Origin: Nitrospira sp.
GTDB lineage: Bacteria; Nitrospirota; Nitrospiria; Nitrospirales; Nitrospiraceae
Assembly (NCBI GenBank): GCA_046350995.1
Contig: JAXLZJ010000011.1
Coordinates: forward strand, 122,500 to 186,499
Length of the DNA: 64,000 nt
Reading direction: 5' to 3'
A program made the position numbers and the translations under genes. Below the pieces are notes generated by a model. It ran no database searches. It was not told where the DNA came from and worked only from the letters and a program-made list of their open reading frames with translations. Positions 5,046-60,787 of this stretch are shown here, one piece after another. Position 1 is the stretch's first letter; every line of letters starts with the position of its first letter.

Positions 5046-5939
5046 CTACGACACGATCTCGGTGCCGATGCCCTTGCGCGTAAAGATTTCCAGCAGGATG
5101 GCGTGGGGAATCCGGCCGTCGATGATGTGGGCCTTGCCGGCCCCGCCGGCCAGCGCGTCGAGACAGGCCTGGACCTTGGGCAGCATGCCCTCGCCGATGA
5201 CGCCTTTCTTGACCATGCGCTGCACGTCTTTCCGTGAGACGGTGGACAGGTGGCGGCTCTTGGCGTCGCGGATGCCTTTCACGTCGGTCATCATCACCAG
5301 CTTCTCCGCATGGAGCGATGCCGCGATGGCCCCGGCGACGAGGTCGGCGTTGATATTGTAAGTGTTACCTTCCCGATCCGTGCCGATAGGCGCGATCACG
5401 GGAATGTAGTGGTCCTGCTGCAGTTTGAGTACGAGGCTGGGATCGACTGACTGGACCTCCCCGACGAGCCCGAAGTCGCCTTCGTCGTCACCCTCCAAGT
5501 CCTTCCCCAAACTCTCGGCCCAGGCCTTCGCGGTAAGCGGTCGCGCCAGAATCAGCCCGCCGTCCTTTCCGCTCAATCCGACGGACCGCGCCCCATGGCG
5601 ATTCAACAGATCGACGATCTCCATGTTGATCTTCCCGGCCAGTACCATCTCGACGATTTCCATCGTCGCTTCGTCCGTCACCCGGACGCCGTGGCGGAAT
5701 TTGGCCTGGATGTTCAGGCGAGTAAGCATCTTATCGATTTGCGGCCCGCCGCCGTGGACGATGACGGGATTCAGTCCAACATATTTCAACAGAACGATGT
5801 CTTCTGCGAACCGCTCTTTGAGCGCGTTCTCCGTCATGGCGTGGCCGCCGTACTTAATGACGACGGTCTTGCCTCGGAACGTCCGGATGTAAGGCAGCGC
5901 TTCGATCAGGATATTGGCTTTCTTAATCAGACGATTCAT
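5046..5939 (-). CDS. argB: Acetylglutamate kinase
   Basis: VIKYGGHAM, VHGGGPQI, YNINAD, GMLPKV motifs. Confidence 0.97.
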   Translation of the reverse strand: MNRLIKKANILIEALPYIRTFRGKTVVIKYGGHAMTENALKERFAEDIVLLKYVGLNPVIVHGGGPQIDKMLTRLNIQAKFRHGVRVTDEATMEIVEMVLAGKINMEIVDLLNRHGARSVGLSGKDGGLILARPLTAKAWAESLGKDLEGDDEGDFGLVGEVQSVDPSLVLKLQQDHYIPVIAPIGTDREGNTYNINADLVAGAIAASLHAEKLVMMTDVKGIRDAKSRHLSTVSRKDVQRMVKKGVIGEGMLPKVQACLDALAGGAGKAHIIDGRIPHAILLEIFTRKGIGTEIVS

Positions 5940-5958
5940 GGGCGGCTCCTGTCGTTCG

Positions 5959-7347
5959 TCAGAGAATGTAGCGGCTCAAATCCTGATCTTTAACCACGTC
6001 TTTCAATCGGTCGTGCACATAGTCGGCGGTGACGGACACGGTTTTCTCTGGCCATTCCGGCCCCTCGAAAGAAATCTGCTCCAGTAACCGCTCCATGATC
6101 GTGAAGAGTCGCCGGGCGCCGATGTTTTCCGTCCGTTCGTTGACCTGGACTGCAAGCTGGGCGATTTCGTCCAAGCCGTCACGGGTAAAGTCGACCGTCA
6201 GCCCTTCCGTCGCCAGCAGCGCCTGATATTGCCGGACGAGCGCGCCGCGCGGTTCGGTCAGAATGCGGACGAAATCGTCTTTCGTCAACGGGCTCAACTC
6301 CACCCGGATCGGGAACCGGCCTTGGAGTTCCGGAATCAGGTCCGAGGGTTTTGCCACGTGAAAGGCGCCGGCTGCAATGAATAAAATGTGGTCGGTAGCG
6401 ACCGGCCCGTGTTTGGTGTTGACCGTACAGCCCTCCACGATCGGCAGCAGATCGCGCTGGACCCCTTCCCGCGAGACGTCCGGCCCCGCCGACCGTTCGC
6501 GGCCCGCGATCTTATCAATTTCATCCAGAAACACAATCCCGGTTTGTTCGACTTTGACGATCGCCTCGCGGACGACCTCGTCCATGTCGATGAGTTTCTG
6601 GGCTTCTTCCTGAACGAGGTGTTTAAGCGCCTCCTGGATTTTCATCCGCCGTTTCTTCCTCTTGCCCTGCAACATGCCGCCGAGCATATCCTGGAGGTTG
6701 TTCTGCAAATCGTCCAGCCCGCCCATGTTCGAGATAACGCCGATGGGGAGACCCCGCTCTTTTACGTCCAACTCGACGGTGCGTTCGTCCAGCTTGCCGT
6801 CGCGCAACTGCAGCCGCAATTTTGATTTGGTGGTCTCGTAAGAATCCTGGCTGGCCGGTGGGGAGGTATCGGGCGGCGAGTCGAAGCTCGACGGGCGAGG
6901 CGGGGGCGGCGGCAACAACAGATCGAGCAACCGGTCTTCGGCGTGCTGTTCGGCCTTCTGCTGCACCGCGTCCATGCGGCTCGATTTCACCATGTTGATG
7001 GCGAGTTCTGTCAGATCGCGCACGATGGACTCGACATCGCGACCGACGTACCCCACCTCGGTGAATTTCGACGCTTCGACCTTGATGAACGGCGCCTGTG
7101 CGAGCTTCGCCAGGCGGCGGGCGATTTCTGTCTTCCCGACGCCGGTAGGCCCGATCATGATGATGTTCTTGGGCATGACTTCGTCACGCAGCTCCGGCGA
7201 GAGTTGCTGTCGCCGCCAGCGGTTGCGTAAGGCGATCGCGACCATCCGCTTCGCGTCTTTCTGGCCGATGACGTAGCGGTTCAGTTCTTCGACGATCTGG
7301 CGCGGCGTGAGTCCGTTCACATTGAGGGACGTCGGGTCGGTAGTCAT
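5959..7347 (-). CDS. hslU: ATP-dependent protease ATPase subunit
   Basis: [42 protein letters not shown]. Confidence 0.98.
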
Positions 7348-48656: not shown

Positions 48657-49104
48657 GAAGGTTTCTCACAGAGCCATCTATGGAATCATGGCGGCAGTAG
48701 ATCTCGCCATGCATGGCAAGGAGGCACCCGTTCAAGCGCGTGCGATTGCCAGACGGCAAGGCATTCCCGTGCGATTCCTTGAACAGGTGCTCCATACGAT
48801 GCGGAAAGCCGGACTGGTCGAAAGCGTTAGGGGAGCGCAAGGCGGATATTTATTGTTGCAGGCGCCTTCGGACCTTTCTGTGGCTGAAGTACTCGAGGTG
48901 CTCGAAGGACCGATCTTTCATGGCGAACCCCAAAATGGACACGGGATTGGCCGCCGCGAAAGCAAAGAACAGCTGCTCCTCGGTACGGTCTGGACGAAGG
49001 TTCAGCAGGCGGAACAGGCCGTCTTAGGTGCCGTCACGATCGATCAATTGGTGGAACGGCAACGAGCGATCGATCAGCAGCAGAATCCGATGTATCACAT
49101 CTAG
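48655..49104 (+). CDS. Rrf2-family regulator, Cys-less (CymR-like)
   Basis: RRQGIP..FLEQ, SVRGAQGGY; no cysteines; C-terminal MYHI. Confidence 0.9.
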   Translation: MKVSHRAIYGIMAAVDLAMHGKEAPVQARAIARRQGIPVRFLEQVLHTMRKAGLVESVRGAQGGYLLLQAPSDLSVAEVLEVLEGPIFHGEPQNGHGIGRRESKEQLLLGTVWTKVQQAEQAVLGAVTIDQLVERQRAIDQQQNPMYHI

Positions 49105-49141
49105 GCAGCACGAGCATGACCCTTTACCGGGAGTCGATATC

Positions 49142-51628
49142 ATGAGCCCACAGGATCAACTCATAGTTCCCGAGATCAAAACCGCGCCCATTCCTCCGGC
49201 GATCGCGGAAGAAATCGAAACCTTCGAGACCGAGGCGTTACGGACGCTCGCGGGGGACGTATCAACCGATTTGTTCAAGCCGTTTCGGCTGCAGTACGGC
49301 ATTTATGGTCAGCGCCAGCCCGGCGTGCAGATGGTACGGGTCAAGATCCCCTTCGGTGGTCTGACCGGAAATCAGCTGCGTCGCGTCGCCGAACTCGCCA
49401 ATCGATATGCGACCGGCGTAGGGCACGTCACGACGCGGCAAGACATCCAGATGCATTTCGTTGAATTGAAAGATGTTCCGACCATTATGCGCGGGCTTGC
49501 TGAAGTGGGGCTGACGACACGGGAAGCGTGCGCCAATACGGTCCGTAACGTGACGGCTTGCCATCTCGCCGGGGTCTGCTCGGGCGAGGTATTCGATGTG
49601 ACGCCCTATGCGAAGACCATTGCGTATCATCTGCTCCGCAATCCGTTGAATCAGAGTCTGCCGCGGAAATTTAAGATCGCGCTTTCCGGCTGCAAGCAGG
49701 ATTGCGCCCTTACGCCGATTCACGATGTCGGACTCCTGGCCGCCAAACGAGCGGATGGGGCGGTCGGATTTCGCATGGTTGCGGGGGGCGGACTTGGGTC
49801 GCTCCCACGGATGGCCCAGGTGCTCCGTGAGTTCTGCCCAATGGACGAGCTGCTGCCGAGCGTCGAAGCGGTTATCAAGGTATTCGACACGCTCGGCAAT
49901 CGGAAGAACCGCAACAAAGCGCGTATGAAATTCGTGATCGAGAAGCTCGGCTTCGAGGAATTCAAGCGGCGCTGGGAAATCGCGTACGAATCGATGGGGT
50001 ACAAAAAGCCGTCGCATGAGCCCATCAGGCTCATGGCCCACGCCGATGAACCGACGCCGCTGATCATGCCGACACGCAATGGGGCGGGGCATGACTCATC
50101 GAACAGGAGTAGCTCCAGCCATCGCAACGGGATCGGACAGGAAACGCCGTTTCAGATGTGGAAACGGACGAACGTCGTGAAACAGAAACAGCCCGGCTAC
50201 GTGACGGCGGCGATCAAGTTGTTCATGGGCGATCTCACGTCCGAACAAATGCTCTCGGTCGCAGATTTGTCCGAGCGGTATGCGAATGGAAATATCCGGA
50301 CGACCATCAACCAGAACATGGTGATTCGCTGGGTGCCGGAGACCCAGATTGCTTCGCTCTACGAAGATCTGGTCGGCATCGGTCTGGCCGATCCTGGGGC
50401 CGAACTCGTCGAAGACATCATCGCCTGTCCTGGCACAGATACGTGCGGCTTGGGCATCACGTCGTCCAAGGGGCTGGCTCGGGCCTTGGCGGAAGTGTTT
50501 CCGGCCGGTCGGGTTCCCGAGGACCTTTCCGATGTGAGCGTCAAAATCAGCGGCTGCCACAATTCCTGCGCGCAGCATCACATTTCCACGATCGGTCTTC
50601 ACGGCGTGGGTAAACGGATCGGGGAACACGTCGCGCCGCACTACGAGTTGCATTTGGGCGGTCAGGTCGACGGGACGCCTAAGATCGGCCAGATGACGGT
50701 CAAGTTGCCGGCCAAAGCCGTTCCTGCCGCACTGTCTCATTTGGTCGATGTCTACCGGCGCGACCGGCAGCCGAACGAAAATCTGGCCGGGTTCGTTCAC
50801 CGCGTGGGGAAAAACAAACTCAAAGACGAACTGATTCCCTATACGATCGTACCGGCGTTTGAAGACGATGCCACCTTCTACTATGACTGGGAAGGAGAAG
50901 AGGAATTCATCCTCGAAGATTTGGGCCCGGGCGAATGCGCCGGCGGCGCGCTGGAAATGATCGAGAACGGCATTCTCGAGGCCGATCAGGAACTGTATCA
51001 GGCCAAACTCCTGGTGGAGAAGCATCAATACTCCGTCTCGGTGAACAAGTCCTATCGCGCCGTATTGGCGGCGGCGAAAGCATTGCTTGTCACTGAAGGA
51101 CTCGAGCCCTCCACCGATGCCGAGACCTTCGCGGAATTTGAAACCCGCATTGCGAGCAAAGGCGTGATCCCCGTTGCCTACCGTGAGTTGGCGAAGAAGG
51201 TCGGCGATTTGGGGCCAAAGGATACGACGGCGCAATCCGCTCTCGAGAAGATGAATTTTGCCAAGGGCTTTGTCGATGCCTGCCGGTCGGCCACCGACCA
51301 GATGGGCAAAGACCTCAAACTGGCGGCCGTCCAGGAAGAGAAACCCGCCGCGGCGCCCGCGCCGGCGAAGCCGTCCGCTCCGGTCCCGACCGGCGCGCCG
51401 GTCTACGATCTGCGCGGCGTGGCGTGCCCGCTGAACTATGTGAAGACCAAACTGAAGCTGGAAATGATGGACGCCGGGGACAAACTTGAAGTCTGGCTCG
51501 ACGCCGGCGAGCCGATCAAGAATGTGCCGATGAGTCTCAAGAACGACGGCCACCTGATCCATCTTCAGGAGGCCTTGGAGCCGGAAGCGGCGCACTATCG
51601 GATCCTGGTTGAAAAGGTCGAAGGATAG
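49142..51628 (+). CDS. sir: Ferredoxin-type sulfite reductase fused to HEPN-like and TusA-like domains (828 aa)
   Basis: YGIYGQRQ, HVTTRQDIQ, LPRKFK, CPGTDTC / SGCHNSC; C-terminal DLRGVACPLNYVKTK. Confidence 0.9.
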   Translation: MSPQDQLIVPEIKTAPIPPAIAEEIETFETEALRTLAGDVSTDLFKPFRLQYGIYGQRQPGVQMVRVKIPFGGLTGNQLRRVAELANRYATGVGHVTTRQDIQMHFVELKDVPTIMRGLAEVGLTTREACANTVRNVTACHLAGVCSGEVFDVTPYAKTIAYHLLRNPLNQSLPRKFKIALSGCKQDCALTPIHDVGLLAAKRADGAVGFRMVAGGGLGSLPRMAQVLREFCPMDELLPSVEAVIKVFDTLGNRKNRNKARMKFVIEKLGFEEFKRRWEIAYESMGYKKPSHEPIRLMAHADEPTPLIMPTRNGAGHDSSNRSSSSHRNGIGQETPFQMWKRTNVVKQKQPGYVTAAIKLFMGDLTSEQMLSVADLSERYANGNIRTTINQNMVIRWVPETQIASLYEDLVGIGLADPGAELVEDIIACPGTDTCGLGITSSKGLARALAEVFPAGRVPEDLSDVSVKISGCHNSCAQHHISTIGLHGVGKRIGEHVAPHYELHLGGQVDGTPKIGQMTVKLPAKAVPAALSHLVDVYRRDRQPNENLAGFVHRVGKNKLKDELIPYTIVPAFEDDATFYYDWEGEEEFILEDLGPGECAGGALEMIENGILEADQELYQAKLLVEKHQYSVSVNKSYRAVLAAAKALLVTEGLEPSTDAETFAEFETRIASKGVIPVAYRELAKKVGDLGPKDTTAQSALEKMNFAKGFVDACRSATDQMGKDLKLAAVQEEKPAAAPAPAKPSAPVPTGAPVYDLRGVACPLNYVKTKLKLEMMDAGDKLEVWLDAGEPIKNVPMSLKNDGHLIHLQEALEPEAAHYRILVEKVEG

Positions 51629-52362: not shown

Positions 52363-53409
52363 ATGCCGATCCAAGACTATCTCGCGAAAATCGCACAGGG
52401 CCCCAAAGCCTCCAAGGATCTCACCTGGGACGAGTCGAAGCAGGTGATGAAGTTGCTGATCGAAGGCGGCGCCACCCAAGCGCAGCTCGGCGCCTTCTTG
52501 ATCGCCATGCGGTTCAAGAGCGAGTCCGTCACCGAACTGGCGGCGTTTACGGCGGCGGCCCGCCACTACGTTGCGCCGCTGGCGATTCCCAAGGAGCTGG
52601 CATTGGTGGATGTGCCGACGTACGCGGGAAAGCAGGACACGTTTCATGCGCTCATTGCCGCGTCCTTCATCGCTTCGGCGGCCGGTGCCTCGATCGTCAT
52701 GCACGGTTACGACGGCATTCCCAGTCGTCCCGGTGCGGCCGGCGTGTTGAAAGCGCTGGGGATTCCCATCGATCTCGATCCGAAGGCGGCCGCGGACACG
52801 ATCGCGAAGAAGGGGTTCGCGTACCTGGACATCGGCTTGTACCATCCGCCGATCTATCGGTTTTTGGAAATGCGGCAGGAGTTGGGCGTTCGGAACGTGT
52901 TCCATCCAATCGCGAGGCTCCTCAATCCCGGTCGCGCGTCGGTACAGGTGGTGGGGTTGTCCCATCCGCCGCATTTCGAAAAGACGGCCGAAGCCTTGCG
53001 CATGCTGGGCGTGCCGCGCGCGCTGGTGATCCGGGGAGTGGAAGGCGATCCGGAATTGTCGATCGGGGCTGCGACGCGGGTACTGGAATTGCGCGATGAA
53101 CGGATCACGCCGTTGGGCATGGGGCCGAAGGATTTCGGTCTTGCGATGGGGTCCCCCCGCGACATGGCTGGTTTTCCGCCGGAACAGCGGGAGCGAGAAG
53201 CAGAGTTGCTGCGACGGCTCATTCAGAATCAGGTGGCGGGCGGGCAGAAAGACTGGGTGCTGATGAATGCGGCGATGCTGCTGTATGCGGCGGGGAAAGG
53301 GACGACGGCAGCGGGCTGTCTGCCGCTGGCCCGCGTGGCGCTCGAAGGCGGGGCGGCGGCGCGCAAGCTCGACGAGCTAGCCCAGTCGTCGCCGGTCGCC
53401 AGTCGATGA
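52363..53409 (+). CDS. TrpD-like (YbiB/TrpD2) glycosyltransferase family 3 protein
   Basis: [21 protein letters not shown]...RLLNP; lacks GTGGD and KHGN of true TrpD. Confidence 0.82.
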
Positions 53410-54241: not shown

Positions 54242-56086
54242 ATGAGCAACACGACCACCAAGCCGTCTGAAAATCTCAACATTGTCATTGTCGGCCATGT
54301 CGATCACGGTAAGTCCACCCTCTTGGGCCGGCTCTATGCCGACACCGGGTCGCTTCCGGACGGCAAGTTGGAAAAAGTCCAGGCCATCTGTCGACAGCAG
54401 GGTAAAGAGTTCGAATATGCGTTCCTCTTCGACGCGTTTCTGGAGGAACAAGAGCAGGGCATTACGATCGATACCGCCCGGACCTTCTTCATCTGGAAAG
54501 GGCGTCAGTACATCATCATCGACGCGCCCGGCCACAAAGAATTTCTCAAGAACATGATTTCCGGCGCCGCGCGGGCGGAAGCGGCGCTGCTCTTGATCGA
54601 CGCGTTGGAAGGCGTGAAGGAACAATCCAAGAAGCACGGGTATCTCCTCTCGCTGCTGGGCGTCCGGCAGTTTGCCGTCGTCGTCAACAAGATGGATCTG
54701 GTCGGCTACCGGCAGGACGTCTTCGACGGCATCGAGAAGGAATACCGGGAGTTTCTGGGCCAGTTCAAGGCCGTGCCCGAACGCATCATTCCGGTGAGTG
54801 CGAAACTAGGCGACAACATCGCCAATCGCAGCGACAAGATGCCCTGGTATACCGGCCCTACGGTGTTGGATACCCTCAGCCTGTTCAAGAAAGAAGCCGC
54901 ACGGTCCGAACAGCCGCTACGGTTTCCGGTACAGGATGTCTACAAGTTCGACGCCCGCCGGATCATCGCTGGCCGTATCGCCGCCGGCAAGTTGAAGGTC
55001 GGCGATCAGCTCGTCTTCTCGCCGTCCAACAAGCGGGCCAACATCCGGACCGTCGAAGCATTCAATGTCGATCCGCAGCCGATTGAAGCGCAAGCTGGCC
55101 AATCGGTCGGGGTGACGCTGGACGAGCAGATTTTCGTGGAGCGGGGCGAAGTCGCCACTCTTCCGGACCATCTCCCGTCGGTGTCGACCGCTTTCCGTGC
55201 GAATCTGTTCTGGCTCGGCAAACGGCCGTTGGAGCGGGGTCGGAAATATATCCTCCGGGTGGCCACCAAAGAAGTCGATTGTGAGATCGCGACGATCCAC
55301 CGCATCATCGACACGATGGATCTGGCGCAACAACAGGGGAGCACGACGGTCGGCAAGAACCAAGTGGCGGAACTGACCTTGCGGACCAAGTCGCCCATTG
55401 CGTTTGATTTGTCCGCGTCATTCGAGGCGACCGGACGGTTTGTGCTGGTGGACGAATACGACATCGCCGGCGGCGGCATTGTCACCGAGTTGATCCACGA
55501 CGATCAGGAGTTTCTACGCGAGGAGGCCCGACGTCGGGATTTTGCCTGGGTTAAAGGCGAGGTCGGCGTCGAAGATCGGGCGCGGCAGTATGGGCATCGC
55601 GCCGCGATTGTGCTTTTTACCGGAGGCCGACATACGGGCAAATCGTTTCTGGCCAGAAAGCTGGAAGGGCGTCTCGTCGCAGACGGTCGGCACGCGTATT
55701 TGCTCGATGGGGAAAATCTTCGCCGGGGGCTTGATGCGGACCTCACGGACGAAGAACGTGGGCAAACCGACGAAATGGCCAGGCGCTATGGCGAAGTCGC
55801 CCGGCTCTTGATCGATACGGGACTGATCGTAGTTTCCACCACCAATCCTTTCGGCCTGGCCTATGTGGACGCCGCGCAGGCCATCAGGACGCTCGTGCAT
55901 CCGGCGCCGGTGATTGCCGTCCATATGAGCAAGAGCAACGAAGAGCCGCCGCCGAATACCGACATTGTGCTGGTGGGGCCAACTGATTTTGACGCGGCGA
56001 CGCACCGGATTATGGAAGAGCTTAAGAAGCGAGGAGTTCTGGCCCAAGCCATCGGTGCGAAGCCGACGTTTCAGTATTCCATCTAA
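54242..56086 (+). CDS. cysN: Sulfate adenylyltransferase subunit 1 with degenerate APS-kinase C-domain
   Basis: GHVDHGKST, EQGITID, DAPGH, NKMD; C-domain FTGGRHTGKS, LDGENLRRGL. Confidence 0.93.
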   Translation: MSNTTTKPSENLNIVIVGHVDHGKSTLLGRLYADTGSLPDGKLEKVQAICRQQGKEFEYAFLFDAFLEEQEQGITIDTARTFFIWKGRQYIIIDAPGHKEFLKNMISGAARAEAALLLIDALEGVKEQSKKHGYLLSLLGVRQFAVVVNKMDLVGYRQDVFDGIEKEYREFLGQFKAVPERIIPVSAKLGDNIANRSDKMPWYTGPTVLDTLSLFKKEAARSEQPLRFPVQDVYKFDARRIIAGRIAAGKLKVGDQLVFSPSNKRANIRTVEAFNVDPQPIEAQAGQSVGVTLDEQIFVERGEVATLPDHLPSVSTAFRANLFWLGKRPLERGRKYILRVATKEVDCEIATIHRIIDTMDLAQQQGSTTVGKNQVAELTLRTKSPIAFDLSASFEATGRFVLVDEYDIAGGGIVTELIHDDQEFLREEARRRDFAWVKGEVGVEDRARQYGHRAAIVLFTGGRHTGKSFLARKLEGRLVADGRHAYLLDGENLRRGLDADLTDEERGQTDEMARRYGEVARLLIDTGLIVVSTTNPFGLAYVDAAQAIRTLVHPAPVIAVHMSKSNEEPPPNTDIVLVGPTDFDAATHRIMEELKKRGVLAQAIGAKPTFQYSI

Positions 56087-56106: not shown

Positions 56107-56132
56107 GGGGGGCACATTTGCTGTGACCCCCC
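56107..56132 (+). terminator. Possible terminator after cysNC
   Basis: GGGGGGCAC-loop-GTGACCCCCC followed by pyrimidine run. Confidence 0.5.
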
Positions 56133-56145
56133 TCTTCTGCTTGGT

Positions 56146-56175
56146 TTGACTCCCCAGAAACCGCTGTGTTACCGT
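56146..56175 (+). promoter_or_regulatory. sigma70-type promoter of mrp unit
   Basis: TTGACT-N18-(TGT)TACCGT. Confidence 0.6.
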
Positions 56176-56213
56176 ACCGCTCTACGGCTCCAGAGCCTGT
56201 GGATAAGGACACT

Positions 56214-57134
56214 ATGGCATCGGAAAAAGACCTCAAGAGCATCCTCGGCAAGCTGAAATATTCGGACGATGCGAAGGTCGTTCAGCAAATTACGGAACAG
56301 ACCAAGCAGGTCCATGCCCGCATGGCGGGGATCAAGCATAAGTTGGTCGTGATGAGCGGTAAGGGCGGCGTCGGCAAGAGCATGACGACCGTAAATCTGG
56401 CGCTCGCGTTCGCTCGGCAAGGGAATAAAGTTGGGTTGCTCGATGTCGATCTCAACGGTCCCTGCGTCCCTCGGATGCTGGGGCTTCACGGGAAATCGCT
56501 CACGATCACGCCCGAAGGGGCCATTCCGCCGGTCGGCCCGCTTGGGATGAAGGTCGCGTCGATGGATTTTTTCCTCGACGATGCCTCGCCGGTCCGCTGG
56601 AAAGGGCCGATGGACGTCAGCCCTGTGTGGCTTGGGCTGATGGAAATGAATGTGATCCGGGAGTTCTTGTCCGACGTCGTGTGGGGCGAGTTGGATTATT
56701 TGCTGGCCGATCTGCCTCCCGGTGCCGCCGCGGACAAGCCGCCGGTGATCGCGGGATTCATCCCGGATTTAGCCGGCGCGATCGTTGTGACCACGCCGTC
56801 CGAAGTCGCGTCCGATGTCGTACAGAAGTCGGTCACCTACGCGCGCGACATGGGGATTCGTGTGTTGGGCATCGTCGAAAACATGAGCGAATATCGGTGC
56901 CCGTCCTGCGGGGAGCAGAACGAATTGTTCGAGGGGAATACCGAAGCTATGTGTGAAGTGTTGGATCTGCCATTGCTCGGGCGGATTCCCTTCGACCGCA
57001 AGCTGGCCCGCACGTTCGATAAAGGCGAGCCGTTGTTGGATGACACCTATCCGACGATTCAGCGGTATCAGGAAATTGCCGGTCGTATCCGCACCTTGCT
57101 CGAGTACAAGAAGGTTTTGGCGGAGAAGCTGTGA
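56214..57134 (+). CDS. mrp: Mrp/NBP35 (ApbC) Fe-S cluster carrier ATPase
   Basis: SGKGGVGKS, D.DL.GP, WGELDYL..DLPPG, G.VENMS, CPSC. Confidence 0.92.
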   Translation: MASEKDLKSILGKLKYSDDAKVVQQITEQTKQVHARMAGIKHKLVVMSGKGGVGKSMTTVNLALAFARQGNKVGLLDVDLNGPCVPRMLGLHGKSLTITPEGAIPPVGPLGMKVASMDFFLDDASPVRWKGPMDVSPVWLGLMEMNVIREFLSDVVWGELDYLLADLPPGAAADKPPVIAGFIPDLAGAIVVTTPSEVASDVVQKSVTYARDMGIRVLGIVENMSEYRCPSCGEQNELFEGNTEAMCEVLDLPLLGRIPFDRKLARTFDKGEPLLDDTYPTIQRYQEIAGRIRTLLEYKKVLAEKL

Positions 57135-57159
57135 TCAGAGGGATGGGAGAGGAGTCACT

Positions 57160-57912
57160 ATGAAATTCGTTTGCCTCAACTGCGAAACCTATATGAATTT
57201 CGAGAAGGTCGAGAAACCCGGTGAAGGGTCGCTCGGGGTCTTTTTCGGCTGCCAATCATGCGGCGCGAAGTTCTCCATGGTGACCAATCCCGGCGAAACC
57301 CAGATGGTCAGCTCCCTCGGCGTCAAGCTGGGTGGACGGAGCGCCGCGGCGGAGCCGTTCGAAATGACCCGCAATACATTGAAGGACGAAGCCCTCGCCG
57401 GCGCGGGGCAGATGGGTGCCTATCTGAACGAAAAGATCCAAGGTGGTCAGCCCGTGGCTGCGGCGTCCGCGTCTCCCACGAACGCAGGCGAAAAGGCCAG
57501 CGGCGGCTGTCCCTTTTCCGCGATGGTCGCTGAAATGGGCCTGACGACAGGCGGGAAGCCGGGCAATGGCACCGCGCCTTCGTCGGACTTCACTTGGACT
57601 GCCGACGCGAAGGACAAACTCGATCGGCTGCCGGCATTCGTCAAGCCGATGGTGCAGAGCAGCGTCGAAGCTTACGCTCGGAAGAATGGGTTCAAGACCA
57701 TCACCTTACAGGTCATGGACGATTCTAAGAACGATTCACCCAACGGCATGACCTGGTCGCGCGAAGCCGAACAACGGCTGGACAACATTCCCGATTTCAT
57801 CCGCCCCATGGCGCGGAAGGAAATCGAACGTTTGGCGAAAGAGCGCGGTGTCGCCACGATTACTGCGCAGGTCATGGACGACGCCAAAGACAAGTTCATG
57901 AAATTCATGTGA
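57160..57912 (+). CDS. Zn-ribbon protein with two PCP_red (protochlorophyllide reductase B C-terminal-like) domains
   Basis: GAGGAG RBS; CLNC...CQSC; two repeats W(T/S).(D/E)A...LD..P.F..PM....E..A...G...IT.QVMDD. Confidence 0.8.
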   Translation: MKFVCLNCETYMNFEKVEKPGEGSLGVFFGCQSCGAKFSMVTNPGETQMVSSLGVKLGGRSAAAEPFEMTRNTLKDEALAGAGQMGAYLNEKIQGGQPVAAASASPTNAGEKASGGCPFSAMVAEMGLTTGGKPGNGTAPSSDFTWTADAKDKLDRLPAFVKPMVQSSVEAYARKNGFKTITLQVMDDSKNDSPNGMTWSREAEQRLDNIPDFIRPMARKEIERLAKERGVATITAQVMDDAKDKFMKFM

Positions 57913-58769
57913 GCATGGGCAGCATGTCGAAGGGCTTGCAAAGGCCCATCCGGACAACCGGATGGGCCTTTCCTTTACCAATACACTGGCCGTCGGGCTC
58001 CGGCCTCGCTGGCATAGGCTTTTCTGTTGTGTGGGTCGTCCTCACGATCATCTGCCTTGATTTTGCTGGTCATCCATCATTCGCCCAGCATCACGATTCC
58101 GAACAGCATGCAGTGCCGATGTCGGTGGACGATCATGGGCATGGCCATCACGGCCAGTCGGATTCCACCGGCTGGGAAGGGTCGAAGGAAGGGGTGGCCT
58201 ATTCGGAATTCAACCATCACCTCGCGGGACTGTTCGTTCTCCTAATCGGATTGTCAGAATTGGCCCAGGCGTTGCGGTCGGCTTCTATCGGATGGGCGCG
58301 GATGCTTTTGCCGGCGGCGCTGTTGGGGACAGCCGGATTTCTTCTCATTTGGAGTGACCACGAGGCTTGGCCGATCGGACCCATGACGTTTTCAGACACC
58401 TTCTTCGGTTCGGACCATGAGATTGTCCAACACAAGCTCTACGGTCTTCTGGCATTGCTGGTCGGGACGATCGAGATTCTCCGTCGTCTTGAATGTCTGT
58501 CCCATGTTGCCTGGATGATTCCGCTGCCGCTTTTTGCCATGCTCGGCGGGGCGATGTTGTTCGGTCATTCTCACGGGGCCCATCCGTCGGCTGAGAAGAT
58601 CGCTCTGCATCACGCGGTGATGGGGACGCTCGCCCTGTCCGCCGGTTCCAGCCGACTGGTGTCGGGGTGGACTCCGTCGTTTCTGGGCCTCTCCCGTCTC
58701 AGGTGGGAAATGATCTGGGCCGGACTTATCTTCCTCATCGGAATCCAGCTGCTGTTTTATTCCGAGTAG
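57909..58769 (+). CDS. His-rich polytopic membrane protein
   Basis: ATGA overlap; periplasmic HHD...HGHGHH; TM-associated His (NHHLAG, QHKLYG, HSH, LHHAVMG). Confidence 0.7.
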   Translation: MSMGSMSKGLQRPIRTTGWAFPLPIHWPSGSGLAGIGFSVVWVVLTIICLDFAGHPSFAQHHDSEQHAVPMSVDDHGHGHHGQSDSTGWEGSKEGVAYSEFNHHLAGLFVLLIGLSELAQALRSASIGWARMLLPAALLGTAGFLLIWSDHEAWPIGPMTFSDTFFGSDHEIVQHKLYGLLALLVGTIEILRRLECLSHVAWMIPLPLFAMLGGAMLFGHSHGAHPSAEKIALHHAVMGTLALSAGSSRLVSGWTPSFLGLSRLRWEMIWAGLIFLIGIQLLFYSE

Positions 58770-60322: not shown

Positions 60323-60787
60323 ATGCCGATAGGGTTCATTCTCAGCGCCCTGATCGCGAGTCTTCTGACCGGTCTTCCGCCGGCCGCTCGCGGGCAAGAG
60401 GGTGGCGAGCAGAAGAGTATTCGCATGAGCTGCGGGAGTTGTCCTGACGGCTATGCTATGACCGGATCTACCCAAGCCCCTTCCGTTTGCAAGGACGGCG
60501 ATCCCACCCTGGTCCAGTGCGTTCCGCTCGGCGCCAACTTGTTGCCTGTGTGTGGCTCGTGTCCGGAAGGCTACAACGAAGTGGGAAGTTCCTCCGTCCC
60601 GGCCCGGTGCGGGAGCAAAGACGGCGGACGTCTGGCGCAGTGTCAACTGTCTCAAATGGGAAGCAGCCTTCCCGATCCGACCCAAGGGATGAAAACCTGC
60701 CCGCCGGATTGCGGCACCGCGGCGAAGCCTGGGCAAGGTGCGCTGCCGCCTCCGCCGCGGTTTCAACAACAGACTGAGCCCAAGTAA
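60323..60787 (+). CDS. Secreted Cys-rich protein with two CGSCP(D/E)GY repeats
   Basis: Signal peptide; 10 Cys; internal duplication; fills the ruvA-ruvB gap. Confidence 0.7.

Follow-up and report, generated by a model that had tools for sequence, protein, structure and literature searches.

A widespread gene pair for an Mrp-type ATPase and a zinc-ribbon/PCP_red protein, followed in Nitrospira by a His-rich membrane protein gene, and its possible part in the maturation of heme-dependent respiratory enzymes

The three genes considered here lie at positions 56146 to 58769 of a 64,000-nucleotide stretch of Nitrospira sp. DNA (contig JAXLZJ010000011.1; this whole stretch is called the window below). 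They encode an Mrp-type ATPase (gene 1, mrp), a soluble protein with a zinc ribbon and two PCP_red domains (gene 2, the adaptor), and a His-rich membrane protein (gene 3), and they are the three same-strand open reading frames (ORFs) found after the gene series sulfite reductase, cysH, a TrpD-like gene, cysD, and cysNC (stop at 56086). On the 3' side of gene 3 come, in order, yebC, ruvA, a small Cys-rich protein gene, ruvB, and pheA. The closest named relatives of gene 2 are from Nitrospira sp. NS4 and N. moscoviensis, and the window DNA, which comes from a wastewater-type Nitrospira, is matched in wastewater metagenomes. An earlier note on this DNA had assigned the domains correctly; we find PF10609 in gene 1, a ribbon and two copies of PF08369 in gene 2, and a His-rich polytopic product of gene 3. 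We find that the Mrp ATPase and the soluble PCP_red protein are a real, conserved functional pair, and that the module that they form is apparently widespread and undescribed; no description of an Mrp/zinc-ribbon-PCP_red module was found in the literature searched. The features of the locus are the following.

56107 to 56132, plus strand: G+C-rich hairpin after the cysNC stop, with a 10-bp stem, GGGGGGCACA-UUUGC-UGUGaCCCCCC, retained in the centroid fold
56146 to 56175, plus strand: promoter-like element, with -35 TTGACT at 56146 to 56151, an 18-nucleotide spacer, and an extended -10 TGt TACCGT (-10 at 56170 to 56175)
56214 to 57134, plus strand: mrp, Mrp/NBP35/NUBPL-type P-loop ATPase, 306 amino acids, PF10609 at E=2.6e-74
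57160 to 57912, plus strand: gene 2, the adaptor, 250 amino acids, with a zinc ribbon, a helix, a disordered linker, and two PCP_red domains
57172 to 57261, plus strand: zinc ribbon of gene 2, C5, C8, C31, and C34 (CxxC...CxxC)
57508 to 57516, plus strand: linker motif G-G-C-P-F of gene 2, with C117
about 57589 to 57732 and 57748 to 57909, plus strand: the two PCP_red domains of gene 2
57924 to 58769, plus strand: gene 3, 281 amino acids from the ATG at 57924, with an alternative GTG start at 57909
about 58086 to 58163, plus strand: His-rich loop of gene 3, predicted to be periplasmic

The mrp product aligns with PF10609 from residue 40 to residue 292, corresponding to positions 2 to 245 of the 246 in the model, at 250.2 bits (gathering threshold 27.1). 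It carries a deviant Walker A motif, GKGGVGKS (G49 to S56, nucleotides 56358 to 56381), and a CPSC motif (C229-P-S-C232, nucleotides 56898 to 56909), both of which are kept at 95% or more among 36 Mrps of the module. The full-length PF10609 match, the deviant Walker A, and the CxxC are shared with the Mrp/ApbC/NBP35/NUBPL (Ind1) iron-sulfur (Fe-S) carriers. Nevertheless, the protein has no N-terminal DUF59-type domain and stays below the NCBIfam equivalog cutoffs for MrpORP (NF041136, 260.7 versus 450, over model positions 2 to 251 of 365 only) and ApbC (NF008669, 179.9 versus 348). It further differs in being a second paralogue whose PCP_red partner is dedicated to it; we know of no PCP_red partner described for the known carriers. 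In N. moscoviensis there is a second, distant mrp (NITMOv2_2065), so the Mrp of the module is a dedicated paralogue.

The gene 2 product matches PF08369 in two stretches, with 115.8 bits (cutoff 32.5). Its AlphaFold2 model (mean pLDDT 82) begins with a ribbon domain rich in beta structure, followed by a long helix, the disordered linker, and a pair of small helical domains. The ribbon is similar to generic zinc ribbons, those of NrdR and ZPR1 among them, and the PCP_red domains superpose on 2L09, 2KRU, and 2YNM_D (ChlB in the DPOR complex), with a Foldseek probability of 1.0. The stand-alone PCP_red proteins 2L09 (Asr4154) and 2KRU have the same small helical domain, with target-normalised TM scores of 0.73-0.75 and a root-mean-square deviation of 1.6-1.7 A; these are, however, single domains of about 60 residues, whereas gene 2 adds the zinc ribbon, the CPF linker, and a second copy of the domain.

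We defined an adaptor family by four features, namely an MKF(L/V)C..C...C..C ribbon, a TNPxETQ motif, the CPF linker motif, and one or more PCP_red domains at the C-terminus, and all four are present in the gene 2 product of the window. The invariant residues of the family are C5, C8, C31, C34, N43, and E46, the last two within TNPxETQ. The Cys-Pro-Phe linker motif (G-x-C-P-F-[AST]-x-[MV]) is found in 74 of the 78 fetched loci and in 50 of the 76 full-length representatives, and short forms of the adaptor do without the linker altogether. Heme regulatory motifs have at their core a Cys-Pro pair with a hydrophobic residue after it, which is a lead for the CPF motif rather than a test of it. An exhaustive profile-free search gave 822 clusters (50% identity) related to gene 2 at E<=0.001, a count that includes other PCP_red-bearing proteins. 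Among the relatives listed, the best-scoring ones are mostly 130-200 amino acids long and combine an N-terminal ribbon of the same kind with a single PCP_red domain, while those of Nitrospirota have two.

Adaptor relatives were detected in at least 589 species genomes, in a scan of one genome per GTDB species with a 16-sequence alignment as the query (a 55-sequence alignment proved too diverse), and 80 loci were fetched as a sample. In 35 of these an Mrp gene lies immediately upstream of the adaptor gene on the same strand. Their labels come from about ten phylum-level groups, including Rhodothermales/Bacteroidota, Methylomirabilota, Calditrichota, Poribacteria, Latescibacterota, Gemmatimonadota, Marinimicrobia, Thermodesulfobacteriota, and 'Deferribacteres', and the same adjacency is seen in the other Nitrospirota loci examined. 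The Nitrospirota-like loci outside the genus Nitrospira retain the pair amid quite different surroundings. The Mrp stop and the adaptor start overlap by 4 nucleotides in at least nine loci, and in locus L017 (1-1074) the two proteins form one ORF with no stop between them (...KSQKRGYK-MKFLC...), which may be a true fusion or the result of a sequencing error. The remaining 45 loci have no adjacent Mrp, and almost all carry Rokubacteria/Rokuibacteriota or other Methylomirabilota labels; an Mrp match of another kind is present in two of them, L017 and L034.

The neighbours of the pair in other phyla bear on its role. A protein of about 645 amino acids, composed of two Usp domains, several PCP_red domains, and a rubredoxin-like domain, is encoded in 30 of the 35 Mrp-adjacent loci, and a protein of about 434 amino acids with radical SAM, SPASM, and PCP_red domains in 25 of them. 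For the latter, the best family is heme b synthase AhbD (TIGR04545, E=4e-98), although its 329 bits fall below the equivalog cutoff of 500 and its C-terminal PCP_red domain lies outside the 339-position AhbD model. At least one gene among those for COX1, COX2, COX3, COX4, SCO1/SenC, heme O synthase, and DUF420 occurs in 21 of the 35 Mrp-adjacent loci versus none of the 45 others, and the AhbD-like protein stands among such heme and oxidase genes. In about ten loci, the gene directly 3' of the adaptor gene encodes a CopD-like protein with four transmembrane helices or a DUF420 protein. Locus L085 has a HemY-type proto/coproporphyrinogen oxidase gene (244 bits, cutoff 98) divergent from mrp, with a cytochrome bd-like oxidase nearby, and DUF420 and a ResA-like protein are encoded upstream of the pair in L084 and L087. 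PCP_red arrays reach six copies. These genomic contexts suggest a role in the maturation of heme and terminal oxidases, rather than in the making of a generic new metallocluster.

Other proteins recur in the same surroundings. In L084 (8884-10651) and L087 (8719-10475), which come from metagenome-assembled genomes of Nitrospirota outside Nitrospira, a CADD/BesC-like, heme-oxygenase-like di-iron protein is encoded 3' of the pair; a 330-amino-acid protein of three PCP_red domains is also found downstream, and then genes for NikR, OprB, and ZnuA. A soluble protein of about 120 amino acids (...VLVQEPW.N.VRFKGL...GGGKFKLNF...) recurs in 16 loci, and another of about 110-140 amino acids in 13. Neither has a Pfam or NCBIfam match, and both occur in oxidase/Mrp clusters of several phyla, for example in L033, L040, L045, L051, and L071.

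The earlier note had seen in the three genes an uncharacterised metallocluster assembly or delivery system with a soluble adaptor and a membrane component. Its observations were largely right and its interpretation half right: the Mrp and soluble adaptor part is supported, whereas the contexts described above speak for heme-dependent enzymes. We therefore infer, with confidence about evenly balanced between belief and doubt, that mrp and gene 2 are the Nitrospira version of a two-gene maturation module for heme-dependent respiratory enzymes, which would carry out a cytoplasmic, ATP-dependent step. The Mrp dimer is expected to carry a bridging [4Fe-4S] cluster on its CxxC and would load or use this cluster, either supplying Fe-S clusters or acting through them. 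The gene 2 product would be a dedicated cytoplasmic adaptor that couples Mrp to tetrapyrrole-handling clients. Its PCP_red domains, which are also present on the presumed clients, might be a common handle that brings Mrp to these partners, or might themselves hold a tetrapyrrole; with its CPF cysteine and PCP_red, the adaptor may also be able to bind heme or coproheme. The genes, their domains, the conservation of the pair, and its contexts are observed, whereas the interaction, the Fe-S and heme chemistry, and any role of gene 3 belong to the proposal.

A parallel with DPOR is striking. PCP_red forms the last ~50 residues of BchB/ChlB, and in BchB it is a C-terminal tail that helps to cover the protochlorophyllide pocket. 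BchL, like Mrp, belongs to the dimeric MinD/NifH class of ATPases and has a bridging [4Fe-4S] cluster, so that in both systems an ATPase of this class goes with a partner that bears PCP_red and is encoded alongside it, for a tetrapyrrole chemistry that is proposed in the case of our pair. The pair is not itself a DPOR, however. Gene 2 has no BchN/BchB nitrogenase-like core and no Oxidored_nitro match, and it aligns with the last ~50 positions only of the BchB models (76-77 bits versus cutoffs of 490-509); Mrp is no orthologue of BchL or NifH, and the organisms are non-phototrophic. We consider it a long shot that the pair is a relative of BchL-BchB in its working principle, with the ATPase dimer docking via PCP_red onto tetrapyrrole enzymes, such as an AhbD-like coproheme decarboxylase, and delivering electrons or clusters. 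If this were true, PCP_red would be a general docking domain for the Mrp/BchL class of ATPases, and the module a previously unrecognised, widespread route to oxygen-independent heme b and oxidase maturation.

An AhbD-like enzyme 'might be responsible' for the decarboxylation of coproheme in the coproporphyrin pathway under anaerobic conditions, and AhbD requires two [4Fe-4S] clusters (PMC10114771). The idea that the AhbD-like enzyme of the module is an oxygen-independent heme A synthase was considered and dropped, as there is no evidence for it.

Several observations weigh against the maturation of heme-dependent enzymes as the role of the pair. Among the 45 loci without an adjacent Mrp, 43 have neither an Mrp nor a heme gene within 6 kb of the adaptor. 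The window has no heme or oxidase gene near the three genes, and its 64 kb contain no Usp-PCP_red gene, no radical SAM-PCP_red gene of the AhbD-like kind, and no further PCP_red protein. Canonical heme-copper oxidases are lacking in Nitrospira (PMC6606698), so the oxidase context of other phyla is not directly transferable. The PCP_red arrays would be equally compatible with a repeat that only docks proteins and with one that binds a ligand.

The place of gene 3 is less clear than that of the pair. Its product is predicted to have a signal peptide or anchor, a His-rich loop of variable sequence, and six transmembrane helices that make up three hairpin repeats. The motifs WEGSxEGxAYSEFNHH, WSDH, DxExxQHK, HSHGxHP, HH, and YSE are strictly conserved and all located at predicted periplasmic helix ends, in a topology inferred from the positive-inside rule, and the cluster of His residues facing the periplasm is probably a metal-binding site. 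No Pfam family is matched above threshold and no NCBIfam model at all. The LiaF-TM family (PF22570) comes closest, with a score of 24.7 for the window protein against a gathering threshold of 27; all 30 of 30 homologues match it weakly (best E=3e-8), and this resemblance may reflect the repeated transmembrane-hairpin build only. The best fold match of the model is human TMEM45A (7oqz; TMEM45/DUF716), a modest one (Foldseek probability 1.0, E=0.038, TM scores 0.44/0.52), and a profile of gene 3 found no match among PDB chain sequences.

Some gene 3 homologues are labelled 'putative copper resistance protein D' by JGI. The identity with CopD (PF05425/NF033808) was rejected: there is no Pfam or NCBIfam match, and hhalign against the CopD-like neighbours of the adaptor in other phyla gives a probability of 0.6%. 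CopD, DUF420 (CtaM-like), TMEM45A, and gene 3 are alike in being polytopic membrane proteins, and the CopD-like and DUF420 genes of other phyla share with gene 3 the position just after the adaptor gene, whereas no sequence or profile homology joins CopD to gene 3. An N-terminal RPIRxxGWAF peptide of gene 3, considered as a docking site, was dropped on account of the plain signal peptides in N. tepida and N. bockiana.

Gene 3 is also far more restricted than the pair. All of its 825 matches are Nitrospira-looking, and a hidden Markov model run against all ORFs detected no homologue outside Nitrospira, neither in the 80 loci nor in L084, L085, and L087. It evolves faster than gene 2, with 53-65% versus 85-90% identity. 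The conservation that the earlier note had proposed to look for in the triplet applies to the mrp-gene 2 pair, not to gene 3. Its idea of a membrane component fares somewhat better indirectly, given that small membrane proteins of other families are encoded directly beside the adaptor in many lineages; a small protein with three transmembrane helices, for instance, abuts the adaptor gene in at least 15 of the 43 Mrp-less loci. In L003, L006, L009, L010, L014, and others (about 5600-6004; Rokubacteria/Methylomirabilota labels) a three-helix protein of about 105 amino acids with the motif LLWRRHPRARF.AYVF occupies the usual place of Mrp, and in L032 (6513-6935) a homologue lies directly downstream of the adaptor instead.

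The signals around the genes bear on whether the three form one transcription unit. The hairpin at 56107 to 56132, which had been taken for a terminator after cysNC, is present, but its tail, UCUUCUGCUUGGUUU, is moderately U-rich at most. A scan for consensus promoters and terminators did not flag it and found no promoter and no terminator at the unit borders. Different G+C-rich hairpins occur at the same place after cysNC in other Nitrospira, and the hairpin of the window is possibly a weak intrinsic terminator. The promoter-like element at 56146 to 56175 likewise fails the strict consensus scan. In the alignment of five Nitrospira lineages, however, TTGACT/TTGCGT...TGnTA(C/G)(C/G)GT is the one conserved island of an otherwise divergent spacer, which makes an own promoter of mrp plausible, with good comparative support for a function read from the sequence.

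Between mrp and gene 2 the gap is exactly 25 nucleotides (57135-57159), as had been reported, and contains a strong Shine-Dalgarno sequence, GGAGAGGAG. The ATGA overlap proposed for genes 2 and 3 is not there: the DNA at the junction reads ATG-TGA (57907-57912). Use of the GTG at 57909 as the start of gene 3 would create a GTGA overlap, but the gene 3 homologues start at a Met matching the ATG at 57924 (M6 is nearly invariant), leaving a spacer of 11 nucleotides. This spacer is the same in L081, and it is 11-25 nucleotides long and free of terminators in four lineages (the window and three others). N. tepida and N. bockiana, on the other hand, have a canonical hairpin and T-run terminator between gene 2 and gene 3, with stems of 10-13 bp (L088, 5763-5858; L089, 5745-5825). 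In RNA data of related strains, contigs from three runs span the mrp/gene 2 junction and a contig from one run spans that between gene 2 and gene 3, which is weak but consistent evidence for the co-transcription of all three genes; against it stand the terminators of the two lineages.

The most serious alternative for gene 3, to which we give a little less than even credence, is that it is a mere neighbour: the functional unit would be mrp and gene 2, gene 3 would have an unrelated envelope function, and the triplet would be an accident of synteny. The region from the sulfite reductase gene (sir) to pheA is syntenic across the Nitrospira loci examined, so adjacency there proves little. The pair without gene 3 in other phyla, the two lineages with terminators, and the weak LiaF-TM match shared by the homologues also fit this explanation. 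Nevertheless, gene 3 remains with mrp and gene 2 in N. moscoviensis despite a changed downstream flank, in which three other genes lie between gene 3 and yebC. The short terminator-free spacers of four lineages, the RNA contig across the junction, and the membrane proteins that recur beside the adaptor in other phyla likewise argue for a connection. The membership of gene 3 in the unit is therefore uncertain. If it belongs there, it may fill the role of the CopD-like and DUF420 membrane proteins of other phyla.

A second alternative, which we regard as unlikely, keeps the pair together and does away with any special tie to heme. Mrp would be an ordinary carrier in general Fe-S delivery, the adaptor would be a general accessory for targeting or regulation, accepting or gating the cluster with its five cysteines, and the heme and oxidase neighbours would reflect Fe-S-rich radical-SAM enzymes as common clients. 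The canonical Walker A and CxxC of Mrp, the four invariant ribbon cysteines of the adaptor together with one further conserved Cys, and the lack of heme genes in the window and in Rokubacteria-type loci are in line with such a role. It leaves aside, however, that the one other known setting of PCP_red is a tetrapyrrole enzyme, that the enrichment of heme and oxidase genes beside the pair is strong, and that the radical-SAM client of the module is specifically AhbD-like; the second mrp of N. moscoviensis also speaks against it.

That the three genes form a copper, nickel, or zinc unit, in which gene 3 would take up or chaperone the metal in the periplasm and Mrp and the adaptor would insert it into a target, is quite improbable: the predicted periplasmic His-rich loop and conserved His motifs, the copper resistance protein D names, the CopD-like proteins and SCO1 near the adaptor in other phyla, and NikR and ZnuA downstream in L084 and L087 would agree with it, but gene 3 shows no homology to CopD, does not accompany the pair outside Nitrospira, and is separated from gene 2 by a terminator in two lineages, and Mrp-family proteins are, to our knowledge, known for Fe-S clusters and not for copper.

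The position of the genes beside a sulfur supply operon, to which the earlier note had attached meaning, does not extend beyond Nitrospira: the cys operon adjoins the unit in Nitrospira loci only and is absent from all other contexts examined. We see no evidence for a functional link between the two, and the hairpin and the conserved promoter-like element lie between them.

The neighbouring genes show some features of their own. The TrpD-like gene (52363-53409; Glycos_trans_3N and Glycos_transf_3) lies inside the sulfate-assimilation operon between cysH and cysD, a position conserved in the Nitrospira loci examined; N. tepida and N. bockiana have a DsrE-like gene in front of it. The sulfite reductase ORF (49028-51628, 866 amino acids as listed) has a TusA-like C-terminal domain, making it a fusion of reductase and sulfur carrier; its homologue in L081 has two NIR_SIR domains and TusA. 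Between ruvA and ruvB, positions 60323-60787 encode a Cys-rich, apparently secreted protein of 154 amino acids without a known family, and other Nitrospira have in this interval an ORF of 159-172 amino acids without any Pfam match. Because the ORF of the Cys-rich protein runs into the longest ruvB ORF, the true start of ruvB is probably beyond 60738.

Nitrospira, with their unusual heme and metal respiratory enzymes, account for most of the nitrite oxidation that takes place in wastewater plants and in soils. The pair of mrp and gene 2 offers a testable module that spans phyla and, as a maturation module for heme-dependent respiratory enzymes, would assign a function to PCP_red, a domain that has been known from chlorophyll synthesis alone, and a dedicated partner to the Mrp-type ATPases. 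Several conserved, uncharacterised proteins encoded in cytochrome oxidase gene clusters are brought to notice as well, and the module points to accessory factors for the long-suspected AhbD-like step of the coproporphyrin heme pathway.

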